A stretch of DNA of 47,731 nucleotides from a phage. The translations under genes were made by a program, and so were the position numbers. The notes beneath the pieces are model-generated. The model did not search any database, was not told where the DNA came from, and saw nothing but the letters and a program-made list of their open reading frames with translations. Below are positions 1 through 29,507 of the stretch, piece after piece. The stretch lies in sequence record PZ445407.1. The stretch is one strand, 5' to 3'. The first letter of the stretch is position 1. Every line of letters begins with the position of its first letter.

Positions 1-41
1 GCACGAATTGCCAAACACAAAAGCCACGGATGGCGTATAGT
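1..41 (+). promoter_or_regulatory. palindrome-type promoter (half-palindrome completed by window end) for 72..449
   Basis: gcacgaattgcca + 22 bp + TATAGT (36..41); near-identical to copy at 43335. Confidence 0.5.
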
Positions 42-71
42 CACTTCACACAAACGAGAGGAGTTAAACAA

Positions 72-449
72 ATGACAAACACTTCAAAGGCTGTATATAT
101 TGGGAACAATGATGACAAGTATTGTGGATTCACTCCGGGAAATGAATACGACGTTTGCGTTCTTGATGATGGATTTTTGGGGGTTTACGATGATGATGAT
201 ATTCACCGTTGCATTAAAAACGGAACGTTACACGAGTTCAAGCTCGATTGTGAGGATGGTCATTTTGTAACTGAGACTGAGTGCGAAGTCATGCCGCCTA
301 TCGACAATAAAAAGCCAGAGCTTAGATATTACATAAATGGTCATGAGGTTGACATGGTTGAGTTCGGAAATGTGCGCTATACTGTAGAGCAGCTTAATGA
401 GGATGGCGTAAAATGCGACACAATCAAGTTCGAAGTAAAATTCGAGTAA
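72..449 (+). CDS. hypothetical protein, moron-like; paralog of 12195..12569
   Basis: ATG at 72 in frame with ORF 30..449, RBS gagg upstream; preceded by palindrome promoter; C-terminus (KFEVKFE) matches 12195..12569 (DFEVSFE). Confidence 0.5.
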   Translation: MTNTSKAVYIGNNDDKYCGFTPGNEYDVCVLDDGFLGVYDDDDIHRCIKNGTLHEFKLDCEDGHFVTETECEVMPPIDNKKPELRYYINGHEVDMVEFGNVRYTVEQLNEDGVKCDTIKFEVKFE

Positions 450-470
450 CCACAAAAGCTGTGATAAACT

Positions 471-494
471 AGCCCCTGTTATGGGGCTTTTTAT
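471..494 (+). terminator. rho-independent terminator
   Basis: hairpin agcccc-tgttat-ggggct + T-run. Confidence 0.5.
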
Positions 495-505
495 TGGAGA
501 AAAAC

Positions 506-1768
506 ATGGTCAAGACAGACAGCTACGCCAATATCTTTCTCGGCGGCAGTGATGGTAGTGAGATTTACGGGAGTTTGCAGAATCAGGCGCCCACAATTCT
601 GGCCTCGCTTTATGCTGACAATGCTCTGGTGCGTCGAATTATCGACACAATACCGGAGACAGCATTAGCGGCAGGATTCCACATTGATGGTATTGATGAT
701 GAATCTGAATTCTGGTCTCACTGGGACGACCTGGAGCTAACAAAACACATCAATGAAGCCTGGTCATGGGCTAGATTGTTCGGTGGGTCTGCAATTGTTG
801 CTATCGTTAAGGACAATAGGGCGCTAACAAGTCCGGTCAGAGAAGGTGCCGAGCTTGAAACGGTTCGCGTTTACGACCGCACACAAGTAAAAGTACAAAC
901 CCGAGAGGAGAACCCACGCAACTCGCGCTTTGGTAAGCCGCTAACCTATCGCATCACAACAAACGAAAGCGATATGTTCTATGATGTGCATTACACCCGC
1001 ATTCACATCATTGACGGAGAGCGAGTCCCTAACGTAATGCGCCGTCAGAATGATGGATGGGGTAGAAGTGTTCTTTCTAGTGATATTCTTGACTCAATCA
1101 AGGATTACACGAACTGTGAACGACTTGCCACGCAATTACTGAAGCGTAAGCAGCAGGCGGTCTGGAAGGCGAAAGGGCTTGCTGAGTTGTGTGATGACAG
1201 CGAAGGATTTGGCGCGGCTCGATTACGACTTGCTCAGGTTGATAACAATAGTGGCGTGGGTCAGGCAATTGGCATTGACGCAGAATCTGAAGAGTACAGT
1301 GTTCTAAACTCTGATATCGGCGGGATTGATGCGTTTCTGGATAAGAAGTTTGACCGAATCGTTGCTCTGAGCGGCATTCATGAAATCATCCTGAAGAACA
1401 AGAACGTTGGCGGTGTATCTTCAAGCCAGAATACGGCGCTTGAGACATTCCACAAGCTGGTTGACCGCAAGCGTAATGCTGAGCTTCTGCCTATTCTTGA
1501 GTTCTTAATCCCGTTCATTGTTAATGTAGAAGAATGGTCAGTAGAGTTTAATCCTTTAGCGCAGGAGTCGAGCAAGGATAAAGCAGAGATTCTGGAGAAG
1601 AACGTAAACAGCATTGCGGCACTAATTGCAGCTGGCGCTATGGATACTAACGAGGCTCGTGATACACTACGAACTATCGCACCAGAGATTAAGATTGGTG
1701 ATGGAAATATCGAACCTGAAGAACCATCTAAGGAAGTAATCGCGACGACAGAGGAATCTAATGAATGA
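506..1768 (+). CDS. portal protein (putative)
   Basis: ~420 aa ORF immediately downstream of the terminase genes across the junction; ATG 506 preceded by ggag; position-based call. Confidence 0.55.
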   Translation: MVKTDSYANIFLGGSDGSEIYGSLQNQAPTILASLYADNALVRRIIDTIPETALAAGFHIDGIDDESEFWSHWDDLELTKHINEAWSWARLFGGSAIVAIVKDNRALTSPVREGAELETVRVYDRTQVKVQTREENPRNSRFGKPLTYRITTNESDMFYDVHYTRIHIIDGERVPNVMRRQNDGWGRSVLSSDILDSIKDYTNCERLATQLLKRKQQAVWKAKGLAELCDDSEGFGAARLRLAQVDNNSGVGQAIGIDAESEEYSVLNSDIGGIDAFLDKKFDRIVALSGIHEIILKNKNVGGVSSSQNTALETFHKLVDRKRNAELLPILEFLIPFIVNVEEWSVEFNPLAQESSKDKAEILEKNVNSIAALIAAGAMDTNEARDTLRTIAPEIKIGDGNIEPEEPSKEVIATTEESNE

Positions 1769-1801
1769 TGAATTTGATGGATTTTAGTGAGGAGAATTGG
1801 G

Positions 1802-2890
1802 ATGTATAAAGTCCGCTATGACAGCGCAAAGTTTAAGGCAACAATCGACGAGAATGGATTCTTAGTCGATACGCCTGTGGTAGCGCGCCTCGGCGTGCAA
1901 GTCTACTACATGGAGGATGGTCGCACGGTTCGAGAGTTTCGCCCAGCAGAGGAAGTTTTCAAGGATGAATCCCTCGCAAGCTACCAGGGTAAGCCAATGA
2001 CCCTGGATCACGTCTTCGTTAACTCTGAGAACGCTAAAGAGGTGGTAGTAGGTTCAGTTTCTGGCAAAGCTGAACCTCTTGGCAGTTCAGTGGTTGCGCC
2101 AATCGTTATTTACGACAACGCAGCCATTCAGGAAGCTATGGCAGGTAACGCCAAGGAGTTGTCAGTCGGATACTCTGCAATTCTTGACGAAACCCCAGGA
2201 TGGGGAGACCCTGCTACTGGCGAGTACATCCTTAAATCTGATGCTGATGAGAAATTCGATGCACCAGAAGGATGGCAGGAGTTCGACGCAATTCAGCGTG
2301 ACATTAAAGTGAACCATCTCGCAATGGTATATCGCGGTCGCGCAGGTATTGCCAAATTGAATATGGACGGTGAGCAGGAAAACCCGTATACTACTGACGT
2401 TGATATCAATAAAGAGGATAAACAGGAAATGATTAAGATTAAACTCGACGGCGCGCAGGAATTTGAGGTCGCACCGGAAGTCGCTTCTCACATCGAAGCG
2501 CTGAACGCAAAGGCTGATACCGCAATCGCAGAGCGCGACGCACTGAAAGCTAAAGTAGACGCAATGCCTGCCGAAATCGAGGCTGCCGTAGCTAAAGCTA
2601 AAGCAGACGCTGAAGCACTAGCTGCCCTGGTTGCTGTTGCCGCTGAAGCTGGTGTGAAAGCTGACGGTCTGGATGCTAAAGGCATTAAAGTTGCTTACGT
2701 TAAAGAAGTCTCCGGCCTTGATGTTGCTGAGAAATCCGACGCGTACATCGACGCAGCGTTCGACATTGCCAAAGATTCTGATAAAATGGCTGAAGTACGT
2801 AAAGCAACTAACGCTTCCAACAAATCTGACAGCGCCGATGAGCCTAAGAAATTAGACCCGCGTGCTCGTTTAGCTAAAATTAAGAAATAA
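1802..2890 (+). CDS. head morphogenesis / scaffold-like protein (putative)
   Basis: ATG 1802 after gaggag; Ala/Lys/Glu-rich C-terminal region typical of scaffold coiled coils; lies between portal and capsid. Confidence 0.4.
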   Translation: MYKVRYDSAKFKATIDENGFLVDTPVVARLGVQVYYMEDGRTVREFRPAEEVFKDESLASYQGKPMTLDHVFVNSENAKEVVVGSVSGKAEPLGSSVVAPIVIYDNAAIQEAMAGNAKELSVGYSAILDETPGWGDPATGEYILKSDADEKFDAPEGWQEFDAIQRDIKVNHLAMVYRGRAGIAKLNMDGEQENPYTTDVDINKEDKQEMIKIKLDGAQEFEVAPEVASHIEALNAKADTAIAERDALKAKVDAMPAEIEAAVAKAKADAEALAALVAVAAEAGVKADGLDAKGIKVAYVKEVSGLDVAEKSDAYIDAAFDIAKDSDKMAEVRKATNASNKSDSADEPKKLDPRARLAKIKK

Positions 2891-2902
2891 GGAGTTATAA
2901 AC

Positions 2903-3424
2903 ATGGCAATTCGTTCCGTAGCACTGGCTGGTATGGTTTCTGATACCTCTCTGTATAACATCGACGGCGCTTGCGTAGTTGGTGGTAGTGATGCAATTCC
3001 GGTTGGTACTGTTGTTGGAGTTACATCCGCTCAGCCTGTGGATGGTCACAAGGTTGTTGGCCTCCCTGCTGTGACTGGCACACCAGTTAAACCTTATGGT
3101 GTTGTTGTTAAATCTCATTACGAGACACCGGATGGCACCGCTCGCGTAAATGAAGCAGTTAACGTAATGACTCATGGTCGAATCTGGGTTCGAACCACTT
3201 TAGAAGCTGCGCCAGATTTTGGTAGTAAGGTTTTCGTAAACGCAAGTGGCGTTGTTGCTACCGAAGCAGCAGGCACTACTTGGGAGACTGGCTTTACATT
3301 TGCTGGCGGTTATGTGTCTGCCTATGCTGGCGGCGCCAACCCAATTCAGCAAGGAGAAAGCGTTGATGGTGCACTAGTTGAGGTTCAGCTTATTCAATCC
3401 GCAGACTCAACTGTTGCAGCTTAA
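2903..3424 (+). CDS. putative head structural / decoration protein
   Basis: RBS aaggag; Gly/Val/Thr-rich; followed by terminator hairpin. Confidence 0.35.
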   Translation: MAIRSVALAGMVSDTSLYNIDGACVVGGSDAIPVGTVVGVTSAQPVDGHKVVGLPAVTGTPVKPYGVVVKSHYETPDGTARVNEAVNVMTHGRIWVRTTLEAAPDFGSKVFVNASGVVATEAAGTTWETGFTFAGGYVSAYAGGANPIQQGESVDGALVEVQLIQSADSTVAA

Positions 3425-3430
3425 TTAGAT

Positions 3431-3450
3431 GGCCCTTCGGGGCCTTTTTT
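3431..3450 (+). terminator. rho-independent terminator
   Basis: ggccc-ttcg-gggcc + TTTTTT. Confidence 0.6.
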
Positions 3451-3466
3451 ACTATATGGGGATTTT

Positions 3467-3691
3467 ATGATAAAAATATTTTCTGGTGACTTCGAGTTCG
3501 CACATGAGGCTGATGCATTCCTTAATGATGCAATTTCCTCAGGATTCAAATATCTAGTCAGGTCGCTGAGCAAATCACCAATGATTCAGGCCTATAGTCG
3601 CAGCGATACAACTCCAGGAAAAGGGGTTATAAGAAAGGATGGAGTGAGAGTTTTGGGAGTGGCCCTATCTGACGACCCTAGATGTGGATAA
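3467..3691 (+). CDS. hypothetical protein
   Basis: ORF bracketed by terminators; same frame as the downstream ORF, separated by one TAA. Confidence 0.3.
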   Translation: MIKIFSGDFEFAHEADAFLNDAISSGFKYLVRSLSKSPMIQAYSRSDTTPGKGVIRKDGVRVLGVALSDDPRCG

Positions 3692-3787
3692 CTGGTTGAT
3701 GAATTTTCTGTTTTTAAGTCAGCGGAGTATGAGGAGTATACTCATGAGATTGATGGTGTATGGGTTAACTATATCCACAATGACTTC

Positions 3788-4009
3788 GTGAGTAAATTAA
3801 ATGATGGTTGGAGAACGGTTACAGACAGCGCATCCCCGCTAACCCACCACCCTCAGGTGTTGACGTGGTCATGGGAGTACAACTACTATTACACAAGATC
3901 ATCATCAACTTATGGTATTTGCTTTTTAGCTAGGTTTGCAAATCATGATTCAACTAAAAAATCTGGCTGGGCCTTAGTTAAGTACGAAGAGGTAGAAGCG
4001 CCACAGTAA
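3788..4009 (+). CDS. hypothetical protein (GTG start; frame open from 3692)
   Basis: ORF track; in frame with 3467..3691. Confidence 0.3.
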   Translation: MSKLNDGWRTVTDSASPLTHHPQVLTWSWEYNYYYTRSSSTYGICFLARFANHDSTKKSGWALVKYEEVEAPQ

Positions 4010-4015
4010 ATAAAG

Positions 4016-4033
4016 CCTCCTTCGGGAGGTTTT
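4016..4033 (+). terminator. rho-independent terminator
   Basis: cctcc-ttcg-ggagg + TTTT. Confidence 0.5.
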
Positions 4034-4043
4034 ACCGCCACCA

Positions 4044-4071
4044 TTGCGTGGGCTAAAAACTCGTGTATAAT
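4044..4071 (+). promoter_or_regulatory. sigma70-like promoter for major capsid gene (-35 TTGCGT, -10 TGTATAAT)
   Basis: Hexamers with 16-bp spacer and extended -10 TG. Confidence 0.45.
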
Positions 4072-4109
4072 GAACCCGTAGACACCTAACTGAAAAGGAA
4101 CAATAAAGA

Positions 4110-5054
4110 ATGGCCATTAAATTTGATGCAGAACAAGCAAAAATCACCGCCCACCTCGAGCAAATGGGCGTAGATAAAGCAGATGCCGCTGGTATCTGGA
4201 CCGTTAATCAGCTTACCGCTGCACTGAATCGTGCTTACGAGAAAGAGTATGCAGAGAACTCTGTCGTTAATATCTTCCCTGTAACAAATGAAATCCCTGG
4301 TCACGCGAAGTATTTCGAATATCCAGAATTCGACGGTGTTGGTATCGCTCAGATTATCGCTGATTACTCTGACGACCTGCCTCTGGTTGACGCTTTCATG
4401 ACTGAGAAGCAAGGTAAAGTATTCCGTTTCGGTAACGCATTCCTGATTTCTACTGATGAAATTAAAGCTGGCGCTGCAACTGGTCAGTCTCTGTCAACTC
4501 GCAAACAAGCGCTGGCATTCGAAGCGCACGACAACCTGTTGGACAAACTGGTTTGGTCTGGTTCCGCTCCGCACGGTATCGTAAGCGTATTCGATCAGCC
4601 GAACATCAACAACGTTGTTGCAACTCCAAACTGGAGCGTCCCGCAGAACGCAATTGATGACGTAACCGCGATGATTGATGCAGTTGAATCTTCAACTCAG
4701 GGCTTACATCATGTGACTGACATTCTGCTTCCAGCCTCTGCTCGCCGAGTAATGCAGCAACTGGTTCCGCAGACAAACCTGAGTTACGGCGAATTGTTCA
4801 CTCGTAACAACTCGGGCCTGACTATTCGCTTCTTGCAGTTCCTGGATAACTACGATGGAGCGGGTGGTAAAGCTGCTCTGGCGTTTGAAAAGAGTCCACT
4901 CAATATGTCTATCGAGATTCCAGAAGCTACTAACGTTCTTCCTGGTCAACCGAAAGATTTGCACTTTAAGTACCCTGTAACATCTAAAGCGACAGGTTTG
5001 ATTGTTTATCGCCCTCTGACGATGGCAGTAATCAAAGGCATTACCTTCGCGTAA
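4110..5054 (+). CDS. major capsid protein (putative)
   Basis: 314 aa ORF behind a strong sigma70-like promoter and followed by a strong terminator; position in head module. Confidence 0.6.
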   Translation: MAIKFDAEQAKITAHLEQMGVDKADAAGIWTVNQLTAALNRAYEKEYAENSVVNIFPVTNEIPGHAKYFEYPEFDGVGIAQIIADYSDDLPLVDAFMTEKQGKVFRFGNAFLISTDEIKAGAATGQSLSTRKQALAFEAHDNLLDKLVWSGSAPHGIVSVFDQPNINNVVATPNWSVPQNAIDDVTAMIDAVESSTQGLHHVTDILLPASARRVMQQLVPQTNLSYGELFTRNNSGLTIRFLQFLDNYDGAGGKAALAFEKSPLNMSIEIPEATNVLPGQPKDLHFKYPVTSKATGLIVYRPLTMAVIKGITFA

Positions 5055-5060
5055 TAAATC

Positions 5061-5082
5061 GCCCTCTTCGGAGGGCTTTTTT
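5061..5082 (+). terminator. rho-independent terminator after major capsid gene
   Basis: gccctc-ttcg-gagggc + TTTTTT. Confidence 0.65.
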
Positions 5083-5147
5083 ACGTCTGTACCAAATGGA
5101 ATTGTTGGGTTATAATCACTCAATCAGATAAACAAAGGAGAAAAAAA

Positions 5148-5393
5148 ATGATTCGCTTAGAACACACTGGCGCTTGCCTTATCGTCTACAAGGGTGAGAA
5201 ATATTTGCCTGGTGATACTTTCGAGGTTGATGCAATTTGCGACGGACTCAAGCGCCTAATCGCAGAGGGTAAGCTCACCATTGAGGGTGACGCTAAGGCA
5301 ACCAAGCAGATCGCGCAGGAAATTGTTAGCAAGAAGAAGCGCAAAGAACCGAAAACCATCTCCGAAGCTGAGACTGGTAACGAGTACAAATAA
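5148..5393 (+). CDS. hypothetical head-module protein
   Basis: ORF with RBS aaaggag; terminator downstream. Confidence 0.4.
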   Translation: MIRLEHTGACLIVYKGEKYLPGDTFEVDAICDGLKRLIAEGKLTIEGDAKATKQIAQEIVSKKKRKEPKTISEAETGNEYK

Positions 5394-5433
5394 CAAAAGG
5401 GCGCTTCGGCGTCCTTTATTGTATGGAGCTAAT

Positions 5434-5835
5434 ATGAATGATGCAATTTTGGCGTTTATGCGATCGCTTGTTCCTGCGCTTAAAGCGGTGGATGACGAAT
5501 CAATTAATGTATGGATCGATTTGGCACGTCTCTACGTATGTGAGAGCAAGTTTGGCAATGATGCTGATCGCGCTGTGGGCCTTTATGCCTTGCACCTGAT
5601 GCTTTCTGATGGCGCATTTAAGGGTGAGAATGAAGGCTTGGAAACATACAGTCGTAGAATGGCAAGTTATGCACTGAGCGGTGAGTTCTCTATCACTTAT
5701 GATAATCAATCAGCAATCCAGGGTGACTTATCATCTTCCTCATGGGGTCGTATGTACAAGGCACTTCTCCGCAAGAAAGGTGGTGGCTTTGGTTTGATTA
5801 CTTCCGCTCGTAGCGGTGGGTGCGGTTGCCGATGA
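5434..5835 (+). CDS. head-tail connector / adaptor (putative)
   Basis: ATG 5434 with ggag RBS; start of a chain of overlapping genes between capsid and major tail. Confidence 0.4.
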   Translation: MNDAILAFMRSLVPALKAVDDESINVWIDLARLYVCESKFGNDADRAVGLYALHLMLSDGAFKGENEGLETYSRRMASYALSGEFSITYDNQSAIQGDLSSSSWGRMYKALLRKKGGGFGLITSARSGGCGCR

Positions 5836-6203
5836 ACTACAACGAAATAGAATCAATCACTCGTGCTGGCATTAACTTCTTTAGTGATGCCAGCGGCGTT
5901 TATGAAATGAGTACGGGAGCTGGATATGTTGAAATCGTTAACGGCGTTGAGGTTGAGGTTCCTTCGCAAACATTTCAGCTAAAGGGCTTGGTGCGAGAAA
6001 TCAAGACGCGAGATATCGATGGCGAGTTTATCCAGTTTGGCGATAAGCGCGGAATCTTCACGGCCCAGGTGGAAATCAAGCAGGGTTATCAGATTAAGGT
6101 TGATGGTGAGACTTTTGTTGTTGTTGACCCGCGCCCTGTTAAACCAACTGGCACGGTTGTTGGCTACCGTCCAATTCTTCGTAGGGTGGCTACTTATGGC
6201 TAG
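5832..6203 (+). CDS. head-tail joining protein (putative)
   Basis: ATGA overlap with upstream gene. Confidence 0.4.
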   Translation: MNYNEIESITRAGINFFSDASGVYEMSTGAGYVEIVNGVEVEVPSQTFQLKGLVREIKTRDIDGEFIQFGDKRGIFTAQVEIKQGYQIKVDGETFVVVDPRPVKPTGTVVGYRPILRRVATYG

Positions 6204-6633
6204 GAATATTGGAAGCGTGGTTACGTTTGAAAAATCTATTGCTGACTGGATTGACAGAGCGGAGGATGGTTTTGGGATTGTGGTAGCCAATACGGTTATC
6301 AAGACAGCCAGCGCAATTGTTGACCTTTCTCCTGTCGACACTGGTAGGTTTAAGGCTAACTGGCAAATCACCGCAAACTCGCCAGCCCAGCAGTCACTAA
6401 ACGAGTACGACCAGACTGGCGGTCAGACAAAAACATACCTCGCCAGACAGGCGAGAGCGGTTGCCAACTCAAAAGCTACAAGTGTTATTTATATTACCAA
6501 CCGACTTGACTACGCGGCTGATCTTGAGTACGGCGCATCAAACCAGGCTCCATCCGGTGTTTTAGGTGTGGTGCAAGCAAGGTTGGGTAGGTATTTTCAA
6601 GAGGCAGTGGAGGAGGCGCGTCGTGCAATATGA
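6196..6633 (+). CDS. tail completion / neck protein (putative)
   Basis: ATG 6196 overlapping upstream stop; position in module. Confidence 0.4.
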   Translation: MARNIGSVVTFEKSIADWIDRAEDGFGIVVANTVIKTASAIVDLSPVDTGRFKANWQITANSPAQQSLNEYDQTGGQTKTYLARQARAVANSKATSVIYITNRLDYAADLEYGASNQAPSGVLGVVQARLGRYFQEAVEEARRAI

Positions 6634-7024
6634 ATTATCATTAGCAGCAAGGAAGTTCGTCAACGATTTGCTGGTAAGTGAATTTCCAGTCAGGTATCCA
6701 GTTGCTTGGGAGAATGCTGCATTTACCCCTCCTGCAGACGGATCAATCTGGCTTAAGTACGACTACACAGAGGCAGACACCGTAACCTATGGGCTTAGCC
6801 GAAAGTGCAAATACTACGTAGGCATGGTGCAGATTTCTGTTTTCTTCAGTCCTGGCACTGGAATTGATAAGCCGAGACAAATCGCTAATCAATTGGCAGA
6901 ATCTATCGTTGATGGTACAATACTTGACAGCGGGACCATTTATGAGTCTGGAGTTGTTAACCCGGTTATCAAATCCAAGTCTGGGTGGTTTATCCCGGTT
7001 CGTTTTTATGTTCGTCTAGACTAA
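6623..7024 (+). CDS. neck / tail terminator protein (putative), GTG start
   Basis: GTG 6623 preceded by aggagg; start codon uncertain. Confidence 0.35.
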   Translation: MQYELSLAARKFVNDLLVSEFPVRYPVAWENAAFTPPADGSIWLKYDYTEADTVTYGLSRKCKYYVGMVQISVFFSPGTGIDKPRQIANQLAESIVDGTILDSGTIYESGVVNPVIKSKSGWFIPVRFYVRLD

Positions 7025-7038
7025 CAAAAGGAAAATAC

Positions 7039-7695
7039 ATGGCCCATTTATCAAACGGCACCCAAGTCTTCGTAGAAGGCTCTCGTGGTGATGCTATTTC
7101 TGTCACTGCAATCTCTAACGCCTCCAGACCAGTTCTAACCGTTGACGATGCTTCTGGCGTTGTTGTTGGTGATTACCTGTTGTTTACAGCATCTGCTTCT
7201 ACACTACTTGCTGATAAGCAAGTTCGAGTTACCGCTGTAACTGGTAACTCAATCACTGTTGAAGGTATCGATACCTCTAACACCACAAAATTCCCAACTG
7301 GCTTAACTGGTGAGGTAGTTAAGATTCTTTCCTGGTTCGAAGTTCCGTGTGTTCAGGACGTATCCACTGACGGTGGAGAGCAGCAGTTTGTTAACTTCCA
7401 GTGCCTTTCTGATGATCGTGAACAGCAGATTCCGACCTATAAATCTGCCGTAACAAACACCTTTACCTTCGCTCATGAGTACACTAACCCGGTTTATCCG
7501 GTTCTGCGTGAATATGATGAGTCTGGTCAGGTTGTCGCGATTCGACTGTATGTTCCACGCGCCCAGGAAATGCGCTTGCAGTCCGGCACTATCGCTTTCA
7601 ACGACACCCCCACCATTGGTGTTAACGAAATCGAAACGGTATCCATCGCAGTATCCATTCGTGGTCGCTTGTCCTCTGTGGCAGCTGAAGTTTAA
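7039..7695 (+). CDS. major tail protein (putative)
   Basis: ATG 7039; ~218 aa; upstream of chaperones and tape measure; terminator follows. Confidence 0.5.
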   Translation: MAHLSNGTQVFVEGSRGDAISVTAISNASRPVLTVDDASGVVVGDYLLFTASASTLLADKQVRVTAVTGNSITVEGIDTSNTTKFPTGLTGEVVKILSWFEVPCVQDVSTDGGEQQFVNFQCLSDDREQQIPTYKSAVTNTFTFAHEYTNPVYPVLREYDESGQVVAIRLYVPRAQEMRLQSGTIAFNDTPTIGVNEIETVSIAVSIRGRLSSVAAEV

Positions 7696-7703
7696 AACAC
7701 AAA

Positions 7704-7723
7704 CCCTCTTCGGAGGGTTTTTT
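7704..7723 (+). terminator. rho-independent terminator after major tail gene
   Basis: ccctc-ttcg-gaggg + TTTTTT. Confidence 0.65.
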
Positions 7724-7729
7724 ATTGCA

Positions 7730-7772
7730 TAGCATTTTTTGATAAAGCATTAATTTAATCTTCCTGTATAGT
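7730..7772 (+). promoter_or_regulatory. palindrome-type promoter (TAGCA-N5-TGATA, 22-bp spacer, -10 TATAGT)
   Basis: Direct read; leader TACCTCATCGAAACGAAA. Confidence 0.55.
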
Positions 7773-7805
7773 TACCTCATCGAAACGAAATGAGAGATTA
7801 AAGAA

Positions 7806-8054
7806 ATGAATAACGTTAAAAACATCATCAAGCTCGCTGCGGTTCTGGTTGCTTTTTATGCAGTGATTCAGATTGTTAATCCAACCGGCGAGGCTGATGC
7901 AAATAGCAAGGCAAACAAATATGCCGTTGAATTTGCTAAAGCTGAGCGAGCATGTCAGTCGCTTGTAGGTGGTAAAGTTGACCAAATCATGAAATATGGC
8001 AAAGAGGTTTGCAAGGACTCAGCCGCTAAGATTGCAAAAGAAAACACTAAGTAA
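7806..8054 (+). CDS. small secreted or membrane protein, moron-like
   Basis: Own palindrome promoter; hydrophobic N-terminal segment (IIKLAAVLVAFYAVIQIV). Confidence 0.4.
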   Translation: MNNVKNIIKLAAVLVAFYAVIQIVNPTGEADANSKANKYAVEFAKAERACQSLVGGKVDQIMKYGKEVCKDSAAKIAKENTK

Positions 8055-8093
8055 TAGAATACATACTCACAAACAATAAGAGGATTAACTAAG

Positions 8094-8408
8094 ATGGCAA
8101 AGTTCAAACTTTCACTGGCGGCACTTCCTGACTTTAAGCTGCCTGTAAAATTCAAGCTAGCTAACGACCAGGATGTAGAGGTTATTTTTACAGTCAAGCA
8201 CAAGAAGACATCGGAACTTCAGGAGTTGCTACAGAAAGAAGACTTGAGTACCAAAGAATTGATTATGGCAATCGCCTCTGATTGGGATCTGGAAGAAGAA
8301 TTTAATGAAGAAAACGTCATCGAGTTTGCTGATTTATTCCCATCCTCCACAGTTGCGCTTACTACCGCTTATATGCAAGCGCTCGCTGGTCAACGAGTAA
8401 AAAACTAA
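8094..8408 (+). CDS. tail assembly chaperone (G-like)
   Basis: Directly upstream of tape measure; ends just after slippery heptamer A_AAA_AAC. Confidence 0.55.
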   Translation: MAKFKLSLAALPDFKLPVKFKLANDQDVEVIFTVKHKKTSELQELLQKEDLSTKELIMAIASDWDLEEEFNEENVIEFADLFPSSTVALTTAYMQALAGQRVKN

Positions 8409-8728
8409 AACGAGCGGTGTATCTCCAGTACCAGTCAGACCCAACCGATGCCGAGCTGGAAGCTATTGGGATGCGCCGCTCTGATTATGAAGATGAAGAG
8501 CCTGAGGTTTTACACTTCGACGACAACATGATGAAGGCGTGGGACATTTACTGTTCAATGGCCACGCAATGGAGGGTTGGAGCTAACGGAGCTACAGGGC
8601 TAGATTACAACGTGCTAAACTTCCTCTTTAGAGTGTATAATGTCTCAGAAGAAGAATTGGTGCTCAGCGATTTACGCATCCTTGAAGCTAAGGCTCTTGA
8701 GATGATGGATAACCTGAGAAAAAAATAA
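8094..8728 (+). CDS. tail assembly chaperone GT-like fusion via -1 frameshift (predicted)
   Basis: ORF 8417..8728 is in the -1 frame relative to 8094..8408 and begins right at the slippery site. Confidence 0.4.
8399..8405 (+). other. -1 programmed frameshift slippery heptamer AAAAAAC
   Basis: X_XXY_YYZ heptamer in frame with the G-like ORF, 1 codon before its stop. Confidence 0.45.
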
Positions 8729-8747
8729 CCCGCTTCGGCGGGTTTTC
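8729..8747 (+). terminator. rho-independent terminator / attenuator before tape measure
   Basis: cccgc-ttcg-gcggg + TTTTC. Confidence 0.5.
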
Positions 8748-8763
8748 TATTATGGAGGCTTAG

Positions 8764-11739
8764 ATGGCAACAAATGAATTAGCCGGAATCACACTAGCCG
8801 TAGATGTCTCGCAAGTGGACAGGGGCACTCAATCCCTGCAAAAGTTCAGACAGGCTAACCAACAAGCGGCCTCTGGGATTAGTGAGTTCGTTGATGCCGA
8901 GAAGGTTGCAAGAATCCAGGCGAGAGACACCGCTAGATCGCTAGCGGAACAGCAAGCGTCACTAGCTAAGTTGCAAACAGCGATTGATCCAACAGCTGCA
9001 AAGTTCCGAAAACTTCAGGAAGCTGCCGCCGCTTTGGACAAGGCTTTCGCCGCTGGAGTGGTTCCTGATGAGGAGTTTTTCCGCTTAGGCGAGGCACTTG
9101 AAACGCAGAATGCAAAGCTCGCTCGCTCTCGCGCAGCTCTCACTGAAGAGGGTAGGGCAGCGGCTCAAGCAGCAAAGGAGAAAGCGAAAGCACAGGCGGC
9201 GGCGGATAGATTTATTGCATCACTTGAACGCCAGGCTCAGGCTGCAACATTGACGCGCGAGGAGTATTTAAAGTTACAGGCAGCACAGCTTGGCGTTAGT
9301 TCTCAGGCCGCGCCTATTATTGACAGAATCGCCGAAGCTTCAGAGAGGGCTAATGTTCAATTAGCGAACCAAAGCAAGGCCTTTCAGAAGTCAGGGCTAA
9401 GCGCCGGTCAATACAAGAATGCCATTAGCCAGTTGCCAGCACAGATTACAGATATTGGAACATCACTTGCTGGCGGCATTCCGATTTGGCTTATTGCAAT
9501 TCAACAGGGTGGGCAGATCAAGGATGCATTTGGCGGTATTGGTAACACCTTTAGGTTTGCCCTTGCTGCGCTAAATCCTTTTAATGTTGCCGTTGGTGTT
9601 CTTGGTGGTGCCCTTGTAGCTCTCGGTGTTGGTGCGGCTCAGGCTGAAAGTGAATTTAGAGCATTAAACTCTGCGATTGCATTCTCAAACAACTCGACAA
9701 TTACGTCAATCTCGCAAGTTAGGCAGTTAGTTAGCTCTGTTTCTGATGCCACTGGCGCCACCAGGGGCCTTGTGACTAGCATCGCAACAAGCCTTATTGA
9801 GCAAGGAAACCTTACGCTAACGCAGATTGATAAGATTACTAAATCAACCGCGAGATGGGCGCAGTTGACAGGTAGGGATGCGAAGGAGATTGCTGGTTAC
9901 TATAACCAGATTGCAAGCGACCCAATCCAGGGTTTAGTTGATTTGGATAAGCGATTTAACTTCCTCACGCAGGGGCAGTTGACGACAATCGAGAACCTGA
10001 GAAAGACAAGGGGAGAAGTTGAGGCTGTTACCGCTGCTATTGATATTTTCAGTAAGTCGCAGGAAGCCAACCTTAACGACATTGCAGCACAGTTAACTCC
10101 GCTTGAGTTAGCCTGGAATGATTTCAAAAAGTACATCTCTGATATCTGGGATGCAATTAGCCGTAGAACGGTTGGGGCGCTAAACCTGTTTGTTGACGTA
10201 ATAGCTGGAACCATTGAGCAAATTAGGGTCTTCATTAACCAGGGCGATGTGCTGATTGGTGAATTCGTAATTAGTGCAACGCAGGCATTGCAGAACATTC
10301 CTGGTCTTGATGGTGTTGGTGATGATGTTATCAAGAGTCAGCAGAAGATTATCGATGCCGCTAAGAAGCAAAACCTTGAGCTAGAAAAGTCTATCAGGGA
10401 GCGAGATGCCAGAATAAGAGAAGGGGAGCTTGGTTACGTTACTCGCAGAGAAAATCAGAACACCAATGAGCAATCAGGTACTGATGAGGAATTTGCAAAA
10501 AGGAAGAAGGCACTTCAGGATGAGCTTGACGCGATCAAGAAAAACAGGAAAGAAGAAAATGGTAGGGTTAAAGAGCAAAGAGACCTAACAATAGGTTATG
10601 AATCTGGCGTTCTGGCGCTTCAGGCTCAGCTAAAAGTTCTTCAGGAAAACAGGGATATCGGCGCAGTAATAAGTAACGAGCGCAAGCAGTACCTTCAGGA
10701 AGAGGCTAAATTCAGGATTCTTGAGCAGAGACAACTTGATGGCTCAATAACCAAAGAGCAGGCAAGGCTTCTCATTGAAAAGGATAAGGTTCTTGAATTG
10801 GCAAGGCAGAAGGCTGAGCTAGGTGATCAGATTGTTTTGCAGGAGCGAGCCAATAAGTTAGCTGAAGATAACAGGAAGAAGATTCTTCAGATTAACAATG
10901 AAGCAAACAACATTGATTTAGGCGCTGCATTGTCATCTCGCGAGCAGCAAAGACTTAAAGAGATTCAGGCTCTTGAGTCCAATCAGGTTAACGCTGGTGG
11001 TTCTCTTGAAGACGTAGATTTTCAGCAACTCCTCGAAGCAAGACGTAATTTTTATGCTCAGGAAGATGCGCTACGTGAAAACTGGCTTGCTGGCGTGAAT
11101 CAATCCTTTGCTGACTGGGCTGAGAGCGCTACAGATGCCTTCTCAATTGCTGGAAGTTTAACCACCACCGTATTTGAGGGTATTACCGACCAGATTACCA
11201 ACCTGGTAACAACTGGTGAGACTAACTTCAGGGAATTTACCGTTAGCATTCTTAAGCAGATTGCTAAGATTGCAACCCAGCTTCTTATTGTCAAGGCTAT
11301 TGAGTCCAGCTTAAGTAGCTTCGGTGGTACTGGTGGCGCTATTGGTTCAATTGCTTCTGGTTTAGGGTTCGCTAGCGGCGGCTACACTGGAGATGGTGGA
11401 AAATATCAGCCAGCAGGCACGGTTCATCGTGGAGAGTTTGTATTCACAAAAGAAGCGACAAGCCGAATTGGTGTTAAGAACCTTTATGCATTAATGAAAG
11501 GTTACGCAAACGGTGGTATTGTTGGTGGTACTTCTGGTTATGCTGGTGGCGGATTGGTTTCTGGTGGCCCTAATGTTGATGTTAGCGGTATAACTGTTAA
11601 CGTGAACTCGGGGGTAGGTAGCGACCCAGAGCAAGCTAAGGCATTGCAAAGTGGCGTCAAGGCAATCGTAGCGGAAGAGATTGCTCAGTCCTTCCAGCAG
11701 GGTGGGCGAGCTTATCAGTACCTTCGTGGATTCAACTAA
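8764..11739 (+). CDS. tape measure protein
   Basis: 991 aa, long coiled-coil-rich middle, Gly-rich C-terminus, preceded by chaperone pair. Confidence 0.8.
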   Translation: MATNELAGITLAVDVSQVDRGTQSLQKFRQANQQAASGISEFVDAEKVARIQARDTARSLAEQQASLAKLQTAIDPTAAKFRKLQEAAAALDKAFAAGVVPDEEFFRLGEALETQNAKLARSRAALTEEGRAAAQAAKEKAKAQAAADRFIASLERQAQAATLTREEYLKLQAAQLGVSSQAAPIIDRIAEASERANVQLANQSKAFQKSGLSAGQYKNAISQLPAQITDIGTSLAGGIPIWLIAIQQGGQIKDAFGGIGNTFRFALAALNPFNVAVGVLGGALVALGVGAAQAESEFRALNSAIAFSNNSTITSISQVRQLVSSVSDATGATRGLVTSIATSLIEQGNLTLTQIDKITKSTARWAQLTGRDAKEIAGYYNQIASDPIQGLVDLDKRFNFLTQGQLTTIENLRKTRGEVEAVTAAIDIFSKSQEANLNDIAAQLTPLELAWNDFKKYISDIWDAISRRTVGALNLFVDVIAGTIEQIRVFINQGDVLIGEFVISATQALQNIPGLDGVGDDVIKSQQKIIDAAKKQNLELEKSIRERDARIREGELGYVTRRENQNTNEQSGTDEEFAKRKKALQDELDAIKKNRKEENGRVKEQRDLTIGYESGVLALQAQLKVLQENRDIGAVISNERKQYLQEEAKFRILEQRQLDGSITKEQARLLIEKDKVLELARQKAELGDQIVLQERANKLAEDNRKKILQINNEANNIDLGAALSSREQQRLKEIQALESNQVNAGGSLEDVDFQQLLEARRNFYAQEDALRENWLAGVNQSFADWAESATDAFSIAGSLTTTVFEGITDQITNLVTTGETNFREFTVSILKQIAKIATQLLIVKAIESSLSSFGGTGGAIGSIASGLGFASGGYTGDGGKYQPAGTVHRGEFVFTKEATSRIGVKNLYALMKGYANGGIVGGTSGYAGGGLVSGGPNVDVSGITVNVNSGVGSDPEQAKALQSGVKAIVAEEIAQSFQQGGRAYQYLRGFN

Positions 11740-11769
11740 TTAATGGGGCTTCGGCCCCTAAGGATTTTT

Positions 11770-12120
11770 ATGGCAATTGATACATTTACCTGGTGTACTC
11801 AGATTCAAGGTGGCTCAGCCTCCTTTAGTAACACGAATAACGTTCGCATAGTTAGCTTTGGCAATGGTTATGAACAGCGTGGGACTGGCGGCTACCGAAG
11901 CAACAAGCGAAGTTACCAGATGACCTACACTAACAAGGACTGGCGTAATGTGATGGATTTCTGTTTCAACCACATCATCACTCCATTCTTCTGGACTACG
12001 CCGCAAGGTGATACGTCAATGTTTGTGATCCAGCAGGATAGCATTAGCGTTACACCACTCAGTAATGAAGTTCAGACTGTAAGCATGCAATTCGTGGAAG
12101 TCTTTAGCTCAATGCGTTAA
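11770..12120 (+). CDS. minor tail protein (lambda M-like, putative)
   Basis: ATG 11770; ~116 aa immediately after tape measure. Confidence 0.5.
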   Translation: MAIDTFTWCTQIQGGSASFSNTNNVRIVSFGNGYEQRGTGGYRSNKRSYQMTYTNKDWRNVMDFCFNHIITPFFWTTPQGDTSMFVIQQDSISVTPLSNEVQTVSMQFVEVFSSMR

Positions 12121-12121
12121 A

Positions 12122-12164
12122 TAGCACTTTTTGCTAAACAGTATTGACATGGATGTCGTATATT
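12122..12164 (+). promoter_or_regulatory. palindrome-type promoter (TAGCA-N5-TGCTA, 22 bp, TATATT)
   Basis: Direct read. Confidence 0.55.
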
Positions 12165-12194
12165 TAATTCAACAAAACGAGAGGAGGATATGAT

Positions 12195-12569
12195 ATGAAG
12201 GCTATTTTTAAAGGATCTGCTGGTAGTGAATTCCTGGTTAAGCGCAACTTTACAGTTGGCAAGGAGTATGATCTGGAAGATGCCAAATTCGGTTTTTACA
12301 TAACTCAGGATAATCAAGGCAAAAGCTTGATTTTTCAGAATGGAGTTGATTACACATTTGATTTAGTTGTTGCTGATAGCTTTATCAAGAGCACTGTATG
12401 CGAAGATTCAGGCAATGAGGTGGTAAAGCGCAATGAGAACAAGATGGTCTACCGAATGAATGGTGTAGATGTGACTTGTGACTACTTTAGCGAAAAGCTG
12501 TTAGAGGTTGAGTTACTTAAAGCTAAAGGCGTTTCGGTATTTATCGACTTCGAAGTTAGTTTTGAATAG
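12195..12569 (+). CDS. hypothetical protein, moron-like; paralog of 72..449
   Basis: Own palindrome promoter and terminator, inserted within tail module. Confidence 0.5.
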   Translation: MKAIFKGSAGSEFLVKRNFTVGKEYDLEDAKFGFYITQDNQGKSLIFQNGVDYTFDLVVADSFIKSTVCEDSGNEVVKRNENKMVYRMNGVDVTCDYFSEKLLEVELLKAKGVSVFIDFEVSFE

Positions 12570-12588
12570 TTAAGGATGATGTTAAACT

Positions 12589-12617
12589 AGGTCAATCGAG
12601 AGATTGGCCTTTTTTTA
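12589..12617 (+). terminator. rho-independent terminator after moron 12195..12569
   Basis: ggtcaatc-gaga-gattggcc + TTTTTTT. Confidence 0.55.
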
Positions 12618-12629
12618 TTGGAGAAAATC

Positions 12630-13385
12630 ATGTTAAGTCCAAAGTTTGAAAATCAGTTGCAAAGCCTTTTCCCTGGCGAGATTGTAACTCTAATCCAGGT
12701 TGACGGCACGTCCTTCGGAAGTCTCGTTTACAATTTCCACAATGAGAACATTTCATACACACCTGAAGAAATCATGCTAGCCCAAATGAATGGTGAGCCA
12801 CTACCAGAGAAAACCATCACCTTTCGTGGTGAAGAGTACGGCCCAAGACCTTTTGGAATCTCGGGCATAAATATGACCTCTGACGGCAAGGCAAACAAGG
12901 TTACGCTAACAGTATCAAACGTAGACCAGCGCATTAGCGCATTGATTCGCACATACAACGGACTTGTTAAAGCTAAGGTTACCATCTGGATTACTACGCG
13001 AGATAACATCAATGAAGACGGAAGCATTGCTGATGGGGATTATCGCAGATTCGTTTACTTCATTGAGCGACCAAAGCAGGTTGACTACAAGACGGCATCA
13101 TTTGAGCTAAGCAGCCCGATGGATATGGATGGTATTTACATTCCTGCTCGACTTGTTCAGTCTGTTTGCTATTTCGCCTCTAGGGGTTGGTATCGTAGCG
13201 GTAATGGTTGCGCTTATGCTGGAAACAGATACTTCAACAAGGATGACGAGCCAGTATCAGACCCTTCATTAGACTTCTGCGCAGGAACTGTTAACAGTTG
13301 CAAGCTTAGATTTGGTGAGAATAATCAGTTAGATTTCGGCGGTTGCGCTGCAGCAAGCCTTCAGGCTAAAGCTAATCAATCATAG
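12630..13385 (+). CDS. minor tail protein (lambda L-like, putative)
   Basis: Cys-cluster near C-terminus (CYF..GNGCAYAG..CAGTVNSC..GGC); RBS context identical to portal (ttattggagaaaa). Confidence 0.55.
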   Translation: MLSPKFENQLQSLFPGEIVTLIQVDGTSFGSLVYNFHNENISYTPEEIMLAQMNGEPLPEKTITFRGEEYGPRPFGISGINMTSDGKANKVTLTVSNVDQRISALIRTYNGLVKAKVTIWITTRDNINEDGSIADGDYRRFVYFIERPKQVDYKTASFELSSPMDMDGIYIPARLVQSVCYFASRGWYRSGNGCAYAGNRYFNKDDEPVSDPSLDFCAGTVNSCKLRFGENNQLDFGGCAAASLQAKANQS

Positions 13386-13430
13386 CACTTTTTGTTAAGA
13401 GGATGGTCCAGACTTGGGCTATCCTATAAT
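13383..13430 (+). promoter_or_regulatory. palindrome-type promoter variant (TAGCA-N5-TGTTA, 27-bp spacer, TATAAT) for HNH gene
   Basis: Direct read; spacer longer than family norm. Confidence 0.4.
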
Positions 13431-13452
13431 CTCTTATATTGGTGGTTAAAAT

Positions 13453-13935
13453 ATGAATTGGAATGATTACTTTAGATATGAAAGCGGCAACCTATACTGG
13501 TTGACAAAGAGAAAGGGAGTTAGAGCAAGTGGACTTGCCGGCTATTCAAGGAAGGACGGTTATGTTCAGGTTAGAGTTTCAGGAAAAGCCTTCCTTGCGC
13601 ACAGAATTATATGGGAAATGCATAATGGATTGATACCAGAAGGCATGGAGATAGATCACATAAACCACAACCCAGGAGACAATTCAATCGAAAATCTTAG
13701 GGTCGTCACATGCAAAGACAATCAAATGAATAGACCAATCAGGCTGTTGAGTAAAAGCGGCTTTAACGGTGTCACTTGGCACAAAAAATCAAAAAAATGG
13801 CAGGCAACGGCAAGAGTTAATGGAAAAACAAGATACTTCGGTCTGTTTGATGATCCAATCGATGCCTCAAAGGCAATGCGTTCATTTTTTATGGAAAATA
13901 ATTTCCATCCAAATCATGGGGAAAAACGATGTTAA
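13453..13935 (+). CDS. HNH homing endonuclease
   Basis: H-N-H motif region (GMEIDHINHNPGDNSIENLRVVTCKDNQ); free-standing with own promoter inside tail module. Confidence 0.7.
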   Translation: MNWNDYFRYESGNLYWLTKRKGVRASGLAGYSRKDGYVQVRVSGKAFLAHRIIWEMHNGLIPEGMEIDHINHNPGDNSIENLRVVTCKDNQMNRPIRLLSKSGFNGVTWHKKSKKWQATARVNGKTRYFGLFDDPIDASKAMRSFFMENNFHPNHGEKRC

Positions 13936-14687
13936 CACCAAAAGTTAAACTAGAAATCTTCCAGCACGCAAAGGAAGTTTACCCGCACGAATGCTGTGGG
14001 GTTGTCACACAGAAGGGTCGAGCCCAGAAATATCACAGAATCACCAATGCCAGCAAAGACCCTGAAAATGAGTTTATCCTTGATTCAAATGAGTATGCAG
14101 ATGTTCTCTTTGAGTTAGCTCACAATGAATCTATTGTTTATGTAGTTCACTCTCACACTGGTGACGGTGCCACAACAAGACCCAGTCCTGCGGATATCTG
14201 TAGCTGTAATGAATGCGAGATTCCTTACGTTATTGTAAGCATTCCTGAGGGAGACATGCGGATTCTTGAGCCATCAAAAATGCCACTGATTGGTCGGCCG
14301 TGGGGTTTGGGTAGCTTTGATTGCTGGGAGTTGGTTATGGCATTTCACAAGAAATACGGCGTCAAACTGAATGACTATCGCGTTAATTACCCGTGGTGGG
14401 AGAAGAAGTACGGAGAAAATATCTATGATGACAACTGGATTAAGGAAGGTTTTGATCTGGTAAAAACTTCGGATATTCCTGTTGGCTCAATGATTATGAT
14501 GCAGGTGCAAAGCGAGGTTACAAACCACGCCGGAATCTACATTGGCAATAACAGGTTCATCCACCATCTCTATGGTAAAATGAGCTCTGTTGATATCTAC
14601 TCCGATTACTGGCGAGAGCGCACCGTGAGAATCGTTCGTCACAAGGATTTACCAGAGGATGTAATTTATGACCCAGAAACTGATTGA
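13929..14687 (+). CDS. tail assembly protein (lambda K-like, peptidase-like)
   Basis: Conserved Cys/His residues (HECCGV, HSH); position between L-like and I-like genes. Confidence 0.55.
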   Translation: MLTPKVKLEIFQHAKEVYPHECCGVVTQKGRAQKYHRITNASKDPENEFILDSNEYADVLFELAHNESIVYVVHSHTGDGATTRPSPADICSCNECEIPYVIVSIPEGDMRILEPSKMPLIGRPWGLGSFDCWELVMAFHKKYGVKLNDYRVNYPWWEKKYGENIYDDNWIKEGFDLVKTSDIPVGSMIMMQVQSEVTNHAGIYIGNNRFIHHLYGKMSSVDIYSDYWRERTVRIVRHKDLPEDVIYDPETD

Positions 14688-15240
14688 TATTAAGTTAGGC
14701 CTGTCTCTAGGCCGTAAGTTTGGCAAGATTCACCAAATGGCGGTGAGTAGCGTGCCAGAGGCTATGCGAGCGCTTTGTTCTCAGATTCCAGCATTCAAAG
14801 AATTTATGAACAGTCATGTTGGTCAAAATACTAGATATGCAATTTTCGTTGATGGCAAAAATGTGAATGAACATAGAATTTCTGATTTCAGTGCCGTTCA
14901 GGAGATACGCATCTTACCAATACCTCAAGGTCGAAAGTCTGGCGGTTTGTTTCAGACAATACTAGGCGCCGCGCTTATCACGGTTGGCATCTTCACTGGC
15001 CAGATTTATCTTGTCGGTGCTGGTGTATCTTTGGCTGCTGGTGGTATTGCGCAATTACTTTCACCACAGGCAACTGGTTTGAAGACCCAGGACAACCAAA
15101 CAAGCAACCGCGCATCATACGCATTTGGCTCTGCTGTTAACACGGTAGCTGCTGGTTATCCGGTTTGCTTACCTTATGGATATCGAACGGTTGGCGGATC
15201 CGTGTTTAGTGCCGGATCGTATAGTGAAGACATTGCTTAA
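14668..15240 (+). CDS. tail assembly protein (lambda I-like, putative)
   Basis: Overlaps K-like gene, precedes J-like gene; hydrophobic C-terminal segment. Confidence 0.5.
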   Translation: MTQKLIDIKLGLSLGRKFGKIHQMAVSSVPEAMRALCSQIPAFKEFMNSHVGQNTRYAIFVDGKNVNEHRISDFSAVQEIRILPIPQGRKSGGLFQTILGAALITVGIFTGQIYLVGAGVSLAAGGIAQLLSPQATGLKTQDNQTSNRASYAFGSAVNTVAAGYPVCLPYGYRTVGGSVFSAGSYSEDIA

Positions 15241-15248
15241 ATACCATA

Positions 15249-15270
15249 CCCGCCTAGTGCGGGTTTTTTA
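15249..15270 (+). terminator. rho-independent terminator
   Basis: cccgc-ctagt-gcggg + TTTTTT. Confidence 0.55.
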
Positions 15271-15320
15271 TTTAGTGTAGAATGGCGCAAATGATCAAAA
15301 CAAACATGAGGCTTTGTGAT

Positions 15321-29431: not shown

Positions 29432-29471
29432 CACTAATTGCTAAAGAGATTTCGCAGGGATGCGATATAGT
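29429..29471 (+). promoter_or_regulatory. palindrome-type promoter (TAGCA-N5-TGCTA, 22 bp, TATAGT)
   Basis: Direct read; palindrome includes stop codon of upstream gene. Confidence 0.55.
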
Positions 29472-29507
29472 TACTCCATCGAAACGAAACACAGAGAGAG
29501 AAACAAA

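Follow-up and report, generated by a model that had tools for sequence, protein, structure and literature searches.

A moron, in the concept associated with Hendrix and Juhala, is an additional gene, equipped with a promoter and a terminator of its own, that sits between two genes which are adjacent in related phages. The Drexlerviridae are virulent phages; those of the T1-like kind are common contaminants of laboratories and fermentations and are represented in the BASEL reference collection. Here we describe two small genes of Escherichia phage JulesPiccard (Bas03 of that collection; Drexlerviridae, Braunvirinae), in a window that is its complete, circularly joined genome of 47,731 nucleotides (nt). 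Open reading frame (ORF) A, between the genes for the terminase large subunit (TerL) and the portal protein, and ORF B, between two minor tail genes, had been read in an initial annotation as a pair of paralogous morons. Our analysis leads us to regard them as probable accessory genes carried on exchangeable cassettes, whose boundaries are formed by repeats belonging to the phage family itself.

The closest documented precedent for cassette exchange of this kind appears, by analogy, to be the PeSL (promoter-early stem-loop) cassettes of T4-type phages (Arbiol et al. 2010; PMC2839356; PMC4122927). As in the PeSL system, repeated promoter and stem-loop motifs in JulesPiccard bracket small, non-essential ORFs of unexplained role, and indels and replacements between close relatives are bounded by those motifs. 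The layout is PeSL-like in its junctions, in its identity profile and in a 3' motif that is confined, within this genome, to the two cassettes. Unlike the T4 case, however, the host genome is that of a ~48-kb siphovirus, only three junctions are hot, and these belong to the structural module, whereas the T4 cassettes are found in hyperplastic early regions; the predicted promoter is a Drexlerviridae repeat with an atypical 22-nt spacing, and the cassettes are known from sequence. The repeat itself has been described before. A direct repeat, aaATAGCACnnnTTGnTAAAA, was reported in phage TLS and also noted for T1, Rtp and Rogue1; in TLS it runs in the direction of transcription about 76 nt before the start codon, and a stoperator, an enhancer site and an UP element were offered as possible roles (PMC11447400). 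The elements upstream of ORF A and ORF B match this TLS consensus. Relative to the TLS repeat and the T1 'transcripton' idea, we are dealing with the same repeat in the same orientation, at ~74 rather than ~76 nt. The TLS paper makes no connection between the repeat and gene-cassette polymorphism (PMC11447400); what is documented here in addition is a -10-like hexamer at a fixed distance of 22 nt and cassette edges that fall exactly at the repeat.

Both ORFs translate as the initial annotation had claimed, into proteins of 125 and 124 amino acids (aa) with near-identical C-terminal ends, and both are exact full-length matches to JulesPiccard proteins (bas03_0004 for ORF A and bas03_0023 for ORF B). 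The paralogy proposed for them also held up. Residues 6-125 of ORF A align with residues 2-124 of ORF B at 31% identity and 43% positives (BLASTP, E=8e-9), and both match the profile of phrog_14592, ORF A with residues 4-125 on profile positions 1-116 (E=1.2e-34) and ORF B with residues 1-124 on positions 2-116 (E=1e-23). A family hidden Markov model (HMM) found them to be the sole full-length members among the 827 six-frame ORFs of the genome. The last eight residues are the most striking identity between the two, and on that ground alone one might take the likeness to be chance, or a short C-terminal motif on unrelated genes. That idea is effectively refuted by the full-length alignment, by the common PHROG, by residues in both domains that are invariant in an alignment of 43 family members (Y26, F56, N89, F98, I118, E121 and V122), and by intermediate and mosaic sequences that connect A-type with B-type proteins. 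ORF A and ORF B thus appear to be anciently diverged paralogs of one small protein family. Their G+C content, 40.5% for ORF A and 38.4% for ORF B, is below the 46.3% of the structural genes without inserts.

The closest phage records are Drexlerviridae of the Braunvirinae (Veterinaerplatzvirus, Loudonvirus DTL and others), at ~87% nucleotide identity across the structural module, in which three slots are variable: TerL/portal, tail M/L and tail L/K. JulesPiccard has A in the first, B in the second and an HNH homing endonuclease in the third. AugustePiccard combines an HNH gene and A at TerL/portal with an empty M/L and a B-type gene at L/K. G8 has an A-type gene, an empty M/L and a B-type gene, as does SU57, where the A-type gene is placed by the position of a tblastn match only. 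A scan of IMG/VR gave three loci, one of which (L011) was set aside as an odd assembly. The metagenomic loci L004 and L005, in which TerL/portal is not covered, both have B at M/L, with an HNH gene at L/K in L004 and an empty L/K in L005. phiEB49 has a B-type gene at L/K, an empty M/L and a split A-type copy elsewhere in its record. DTL retains just the HNH gene at L/K, and vB_EcoS-12210I, one inspected representative of ~19 listed vB_EcoS records (44,219 bp each, with identical match statistics), is empty in all three slots. TerL and portal are directly adjacent in DTL and vB_EcoS-12210I; M and L in SU57, G8, AugustePiccard, DTL, phiEB49 and 12210I; and L and K in L005 and 12210I. The HNH protein of JulesPiccard belongs to phrog_99 (E=1.7e-60) and its gene overlaps the start of K; homologs at the same place in DTL and L004 share 45-49% protein identity with it, behind nearly identical upstream sequence, and in AugustePiccard, SU57, G8 and phiEB49 a B-type family member stands in its stead. 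Close relatives thus carry 0, 1 or 2 family members over three slots.

The flanking proteins of close relatives are 91-98% identical to those of JulesPiccard for L, K, I and portal, 66-95% for M and 79-94% for TerL, with lower values throughout in the more distant phiEB49. The family members themselves are 30-66% identical, and the best A-type homolog among 5.8 billion proteins is 66% identical. Because all three slots are empty in vB_EcoS-12210I, a viable phage can do without both genes.

A comparison of the junctions shows that every cassette, the HNH ones included, starts with ATAGCAC at or overlapping the upstream stop codon and closes with a hairpin, a U-run, ATTGGAG and then the next start codon. 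Upstream of ORF A and ORF B the repeat takes the genome-wide form ATAGCAC-N4-TTGCTAAA and begins 74 nt before each ATG; the genome record was opened at an arbitrary point inside the copy that precedes ORF A, such that the terminal …AAATA and the initial GCAC… rejoin as ATAGCAC. Allowing at most one mismatch, TAGCANNNNNTGNTAA has 29 matches in the whole genome, where 4.1 are expected. About 17 copies of the repeat are gene-oriented, and in 14 the best -10-like hexamer lies exactly 22 nt past TTGNTA. Repeat copies genome-wide come with a conserved leader, TTACcCCATCgAAACGA..GAGG, while the leader signature ..CA(C/A)AAACGAGAGGAG is common to cassettes A and B and to family members in other phages and slots. 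Over positions 21-66, the promoter and leader of cassette A agree at 69% with those of the M/L-B cassettes; agreement with other repeat-type promoters is 41-46%. Within the genome, promoters A and B are each other's best match (69%); since A is equally near the promoter at 43334, this likeness alone is no proof of co-duplication. The repeat and its -10-like hexamer are present before both ORFs and absent from the empty M/L and L/K junctions of relatives. The promoter-like elements of both cassettes are the phage family's own repeated element and not foreign sequence. A generic scan for a classical sigma-70 promoter gave a weak TAAACA-18-TATATT for B and, for A, a site inside a gene; hits did not outnumber those in shuffles, and this candidate was dropped.

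At the 3' side, the boundary of cassette A looks like an intrinsic terminator followed by the ribosome-binding site (RBS) of the portal gene. Folding energies are -15.3 kcal/mol for hairpin A and -12.7 kcal/mol for hairpin B (z about -3), and the arrangement TAAACTAG-hairpin-TTTTTATTGGAG is confined to two places in the genome, where it forms the 3' end of each cassette. Empty TerL/portal and M/L sites of relatives hold a hairpin of the same type (AAACTAAGCCCC…GGGGCTTTTTTATTGGAG), and the empty TerL/portal site of DTL carries the same element as positions 457..505. Since the hairpin is already there in empty TerL/portal sites, the predicted terminator of ORF A is a backbone element. The hairpin AGGTCAATCGAGAGATTGGCCT, on the other hand, is common to B-type cassettes at M/L and in the L/K slot of other phages, so this predicted terminator travels with the B-type cassette. 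In the empty L/K site (TAAGGAGAAATAAATG) promoter and terminator are both missing. Because of the shared hairpin in both slots and the bare L/K site, the B-type unit can be seen to be a full module of predicted promoter, ORF, terminator and RBS, one that has been housed at two separate junctions. Elsewhere in the structural module, hairpin terminators at 5061..5076, 7701..7720 and 8727..8744 score on both strands; the one at 7701..7720 is followed directly by the repeat at 7729, a composite terminator-promoter unit reminiscent of PeSLs.

The interior of the genes is hypervariable, between conserved cassette ends. Compared with four relatives, nucleotide identity around ORF A lies mostly at 72-98% within TerL and portal; the promoter reaches 83-92% and the last 30 nt of the ORF plus the terminator 77-93%, and the ORF core drops to 18-60%. 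Which segment has diverged depends on the phage: in T145P1 it is the C-domain, in IME253 and Rtp the middle part, and in G8 almost the entire ORF. Domain mosaics are found among the 43 aligned members, P0049 joining a B-type N-domain to an A-type C-domain and P0057-59 showing the reverse. Synonymous sites are saturated at 30-60% protein identity. Taken together, these patterns fit a recombination process that acts at the conserved boundaries and swaps entire cassettes as well as pieces the size of a domain.

We suggest the following account, which we hold to be probable. Each cassette would comprise the repeat promoter ATAGCAC-N4-TTGCTAAA with its -10 hexamer 22 nt on, a family-specific leader and RBS, the ORF, and a hairpin followed by TTTTTATTGGAG and the next start codon. 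Cassettes would be gained, lost, replaced and relocated through recombination at the conserved boundary repeats, as in the T4 PeSL cassettes, possibly with help from the homing endonucleases in the same slots, and each would be transcribed independently of the neighbouring late genes. Morons of lambdoid and other tailed phages resemble them in several ways: the insert separates genes that are direct neighbours in related phages, with a predicted promoter 5' and a hairpin 3', its base composition is unlike that of its neighbours, and the genes are dispensable. They differ in that the host phage is virulent, with no prophage expression or benefit to a lysogen; in that the promoter and terminator are repeated elements of the phage family's own, copy A even using a backbone terminator; and in that one genome holds two paralogous copies. 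As the phage is virulent, the classical, lysogen-benefit sense of the word does not apply.

In the structural sense the moron reading of the initial annotation is supported by the direct adjacency of the flanking genes in relatives and by the lower G+C content, and ORF B does, as it had stated, break the string of tail genes between the lambda-M-like and lambda-L-like genes. Some of its supporting points need correction. A terminator had been noted after the second ORF; the hairpin is there, but ORF A likewise has one, and that one is a backbone element. The family-type promoter noted before each ORF is real as a repeated sequence and precedes both, but promoter-gene-terminator units are normal Drexlerviridae syntax. 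With repeat promoters this common (~17 here) and some of them before core genes, an 'own promoter' alone is no mark of a moron. Corrected for the family's own promoter element, the backbone terminator of A and the third slot at L/K, the cassettes appear to be an ordinary kind of phage accessory element and a clean example of how such cassettes move. They make up a well-defined, dispensable and fast-evolving gene family with exact boundaries, and offer a natural experiment in how the ATAGCAC repeat and terminators organize transcription and promote gene shuffling in a small siphovirus.

Several observations weigh against this account, some concerning the cassettes and others the products. The promoter and terminator roles are predictions from motifs, and 22 nt is too long a distance to the -10 hexamer for a sigma-70 -35 element. 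The repeat contains a TAGCA-N6-TGCTA palindrome centred near -42.5, and it is possible that it serves as an activator-type site rather than as a -35 box. Given a backbone terminator, read-through from the A promoter may feed the portal and head genes. The short repeats that flank the inserts (GTTAA at M/L; AA(T)AGC at TerL/portal) would fit microhomology-mediated insertion or deletion equally well, and the genome comparison accommodates insertion as well as ancestral presence followed by loss. It may be, then, that at least copy A was never inserted but is ancestral to Braunvirinae and Rogunavirinae, with an old duplication and with empty sites that are secondary deletions; we give this a sizeable minority chance. 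The TerL/portal slot is where A-type genes sit both in Braunvirinae (JulesPiccard, AugustePiccard, T145P1) and in phages of the Jk06 lineage, and a split A-type copy is found elsewhere in the record of phiEB49, a member of the Rogunavirinae. Empty sites retain the terminator, short repeats flank the insert, and the seemingly split copies of ACG-M12, phiEB49 and ECH1 hint at decay. However, B-type copies in two slots with the same promoter, leader and terminator require at least one relocation, and the lower G+C content and mosaic core indicate horizontal exchange. Relocation could also be driven by the HNH homing endonucleases found at the same junctions, the small genes being co-converted cargo. 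AugustePiccard and RobRod40 have an HNH gene directly beside copy A; in JulesPiccard, L004 and DTL an HNH gene fills the L/K slot, and in phiEB49 one lies at the TMP/M junction. HNH cassettes start with the same repeat-type promoter. We nevertheless think this unlikely as the driving force, because the association is sporadic: there are family members without an HNH gene (copy A of JulesPiccard, G8, IME253, T145P1 and L005) and an HNH gene without a member (DTL).

The products of the two cassettes offer few clues to function. AlphaFold2, run on the 43-sequence alignment, predicted that residues 4-60 form a five-stranded barrel, 62-79 a disordered linker and 84-124 a beta-beta-alpha-beta domain, at a mean predicted local distance difference test (pLDDT) of 75; the C-domain modelled alone reached 94.8. 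The N-domain is modelled as an SH3-like small barrel. Both proteins are acidic, and no signal peptide or hydrophobic segment is evident from their sequences, on which no predictor was run. A profile search retrieved 117 clusters, all of 64-198 aa and nearly all of 105-145 aa, with no Pfam domains and no fusions; the longest contigs with family members are phage-genome sized, up to ~50 kb, and a C-domain profile found only 36 representatives among 1.8 billion proteins. The family thus seems to be restricted to Drexlerviridae coliphages. Neither protein matched known defence families or named bacterial families above noise in Pfam, NCBIfam and PADLOC, and a sequence search of the PDB gave no informative homolog and no match to any solved virion structure. 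The N-domain alone had no Pfam match at E<=1, DUF7244 (PF23896) included. In the other direction, the family N-domain HMM weakly detects the DUF7244 protein of this genome, encoded at 32267..32443 (PF23896, E=4.6e-29), at 25.8 bits and E=5e-7 among the 827 ORFs, which would be at most a remote, one-directional relationship. A motif like K.iY…FT.G..Y…dGY..i.dD.G occurs in the early-region ORFs 32267..32443, 30063..30269, 29445..29699 and 35741..36118 (minus strand, C-terminal half). This genome may have a larger repertoire of small SH3-like barrel proteins, with a repeat-type promoter in front of each gene.

What the proteins do can be addressed only tentatively. Dispensability, patchy distribution, fast mosaic evolution, independent cassettes and acidic cytoplasmic products make up the usual profile of phage accessory genes in conflict with hosts or with other phages. 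From these traits we infer, as a possibility that is still short of probable, that the two proteins are accessory factors, soluble and cytoplasmic, with a part in conflicts between phage and host or among phages (counter-defence or host takeover), and not parts of the virion. If they are counter-defence factors, the three junctions would be places to seek more such genes. More speculatively, they may be two-domain, rapidly diversifying effectors of Braunvirinae and Rogunavirinae against defences or competitors, with an SH3-like domain for recognition and a conserved beta-beta-alpha-beta domain, on a cassette that hops between the three junctions by way of its repeat and terminator motifs; we regard this version as doubtful. 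If it were true, it would be the siphovirus counterpart of T4 PeSL shuffling, and two diverged copies per genome would broaden the set of targets. None of the homology, fold or defence-related comparisons gave a match that backs any specific function. A small non-essential Drexlerviridae protein, Gp54 of Bas11 (PDB 9AXB), is known to trigger CapRel(SJ46) (PMC11578894). Gp54 is unlike the present family in being a single domain of 66 aa encoded elsewhere in the genome, and a link to it was discarded as non-specific, with no detectable sequence similarity and a score no better than that of generic SH3 domains.

The family members that were found all sit in the structural module and never in the early region, which could hint at a morphogenetic role, and the family bears the label 'virion structural protein' in RefSeq and in PHROG. 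The proteins might then be minor virion or assembly components (decoration, head- or tail-associated), A on the head side and B at the tail tip, with location reflecting function and with the invariant C-terminal strand ..FEV.FE docking by strand addition. This seems to us quite unlikely. vB_EcoS-12210I and DTL lack both genes and are viable, with near-identical structural proteins; phages without the genes form normal virions; slot and copy number differ between phages; virion mass spectrometry of Jk06-like phages (7 proteins) and Rogue1 (3) found no family member; and no solved virion structure was matched. An experimental source for the label was not found in the papers on Rogue1, AHP24 and TLS. 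It is more improbable still that the proteins are modulators of transcription or termination whose KOW/SH3-like domain targets RNA polymerase, NusG, Rho or the ribosome and so controls read-through of the many terminators in this genome.

Table 1. Positions of the two cassettes, their flanking genes and the repeat family in the JulesPiccard genome
Feature	Position	Strand	Details
ORF A (bas03_0004)	72..449	+	125 aa; ends …IKFEVKFE; isoelectric point 4.4
ORF B (bas03_0023)	12195..12569	+	124 aa; ends …IDFEVSFE; isoelectric point 4.7; two-domain organisation as in ORF A
TerL, upstream flank of cassette A	46164..47731	+	522 aa; stop TAG = bases 47730, 47731, 1
Portal protein, downstream flank of cassette A	506..1768	+	PF06381
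Lambda-M-like minor tail protein, upstream flank of cassette B	11743..12120	+	PF05939
Lambda-L-like minor tail protein, downstream flank of cassette B	12630..13385	+	PF05100
Promoter-like element, cassette A	1..41	+	Repeat: ATA at 47729..47731 plus GCACGAATTGCCAAAC at 1..16; overlaps TerL stop TAG
-10-like hexamer, cassette A	36..41	+	TATAGT; 22 nt past TTGCCA; predicted transcription start ~48
Leader and RBS, ORF A	42..71	+	CACTTCACACAAACGAGAGGAG; GAGGAG at 57..62
3' boundary, cassette A	457..505	+	CTGTGATAAACTAG, hairpin 471..488, U-run, ATTGGAGAAAAAC; portal ATG at 506
Promoter-like element, cassette B	12121..12164	+	Repeat ATAGCACTTTTTGCTAAAC begins right at the end of the tail M stop codon
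-10-like hexamer, cassette B	12159..12164	+	TATATT; 22 nt past TTGCTA; predicted transcription start ~12171
Leader and RBS, ORF B	12165..12194	+	TAATTCAACAAAACGAGAGGAGG
3' boundary, cassette B	12580..12629	+	TGTTAAACTAG, hairpin 12589..12610, U7, ATTGGAGAAAATC; tail-L ATG at 12630
TAAACTAG-hairpin-TTTTTATTGGAGAAAA-ATG	465..505 and 12583..12629	+	In relatives also at empty TerL/portal and M/L junctions
Third variable slot, tail L/K	13382..13935	+	Repeat-type promoter element 13382..13401; HNH homing endonuclease 13453..13935
Repeat starts	47729, 7729, 12121, 13382, 21772, 26927, 29428, 30269, 39067, 40198, 42186, 43334	+	
Repeat starts	37358, 36520, 35740, 20145 (also 26189)	-	

Some minor observations concern the sequences of relatives. 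The TerL/portal-slot member aligns in two pieces in ACG-M12, SCS31, ECH1 and phiEB49, the last of which annotates only a 68-aa gp57; these may be frameshifted or decaying copies, or reflect sequencing error. Tail L of DTL (L009) is split into two overlapping ORF pieces at 14414..15311 that are unannotated in RefSeq, with a frameshift or sequencing error likely. The locus set aside from the IMG/VR scan (IMGVR_UViG_3300010266_000002, 2850..3650) holds the sole family member found without the repeat or TerL upstream, and the portal gene behind it is broken; this contig is probably a chimera or of poor quality. PP134917.1, 'Pseudomonas phage PsgS01F', shares both its length (44,679 bp) and its family-member identity with Escherichia phage vB_EcoS_UALMA_PCEc3, and its stated host looks doubtful.

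Two further features of the JulesPiccard genome are worth recording. Downstream of the J-like tail tip gene, 18713..19033 matches phrog_557 ('outer membrane protein') and 19033..19704 matches phrog_425 ('membrane associated protein', in the moron/host-takeover category); both are candidates for additional accessory genes in the tail module, possibly ones of the superinfection-exclusion type. A single tRNA-Arg gene with anticodon TCT lies at 44641..44718, as it likewise does in other T1-like phages.

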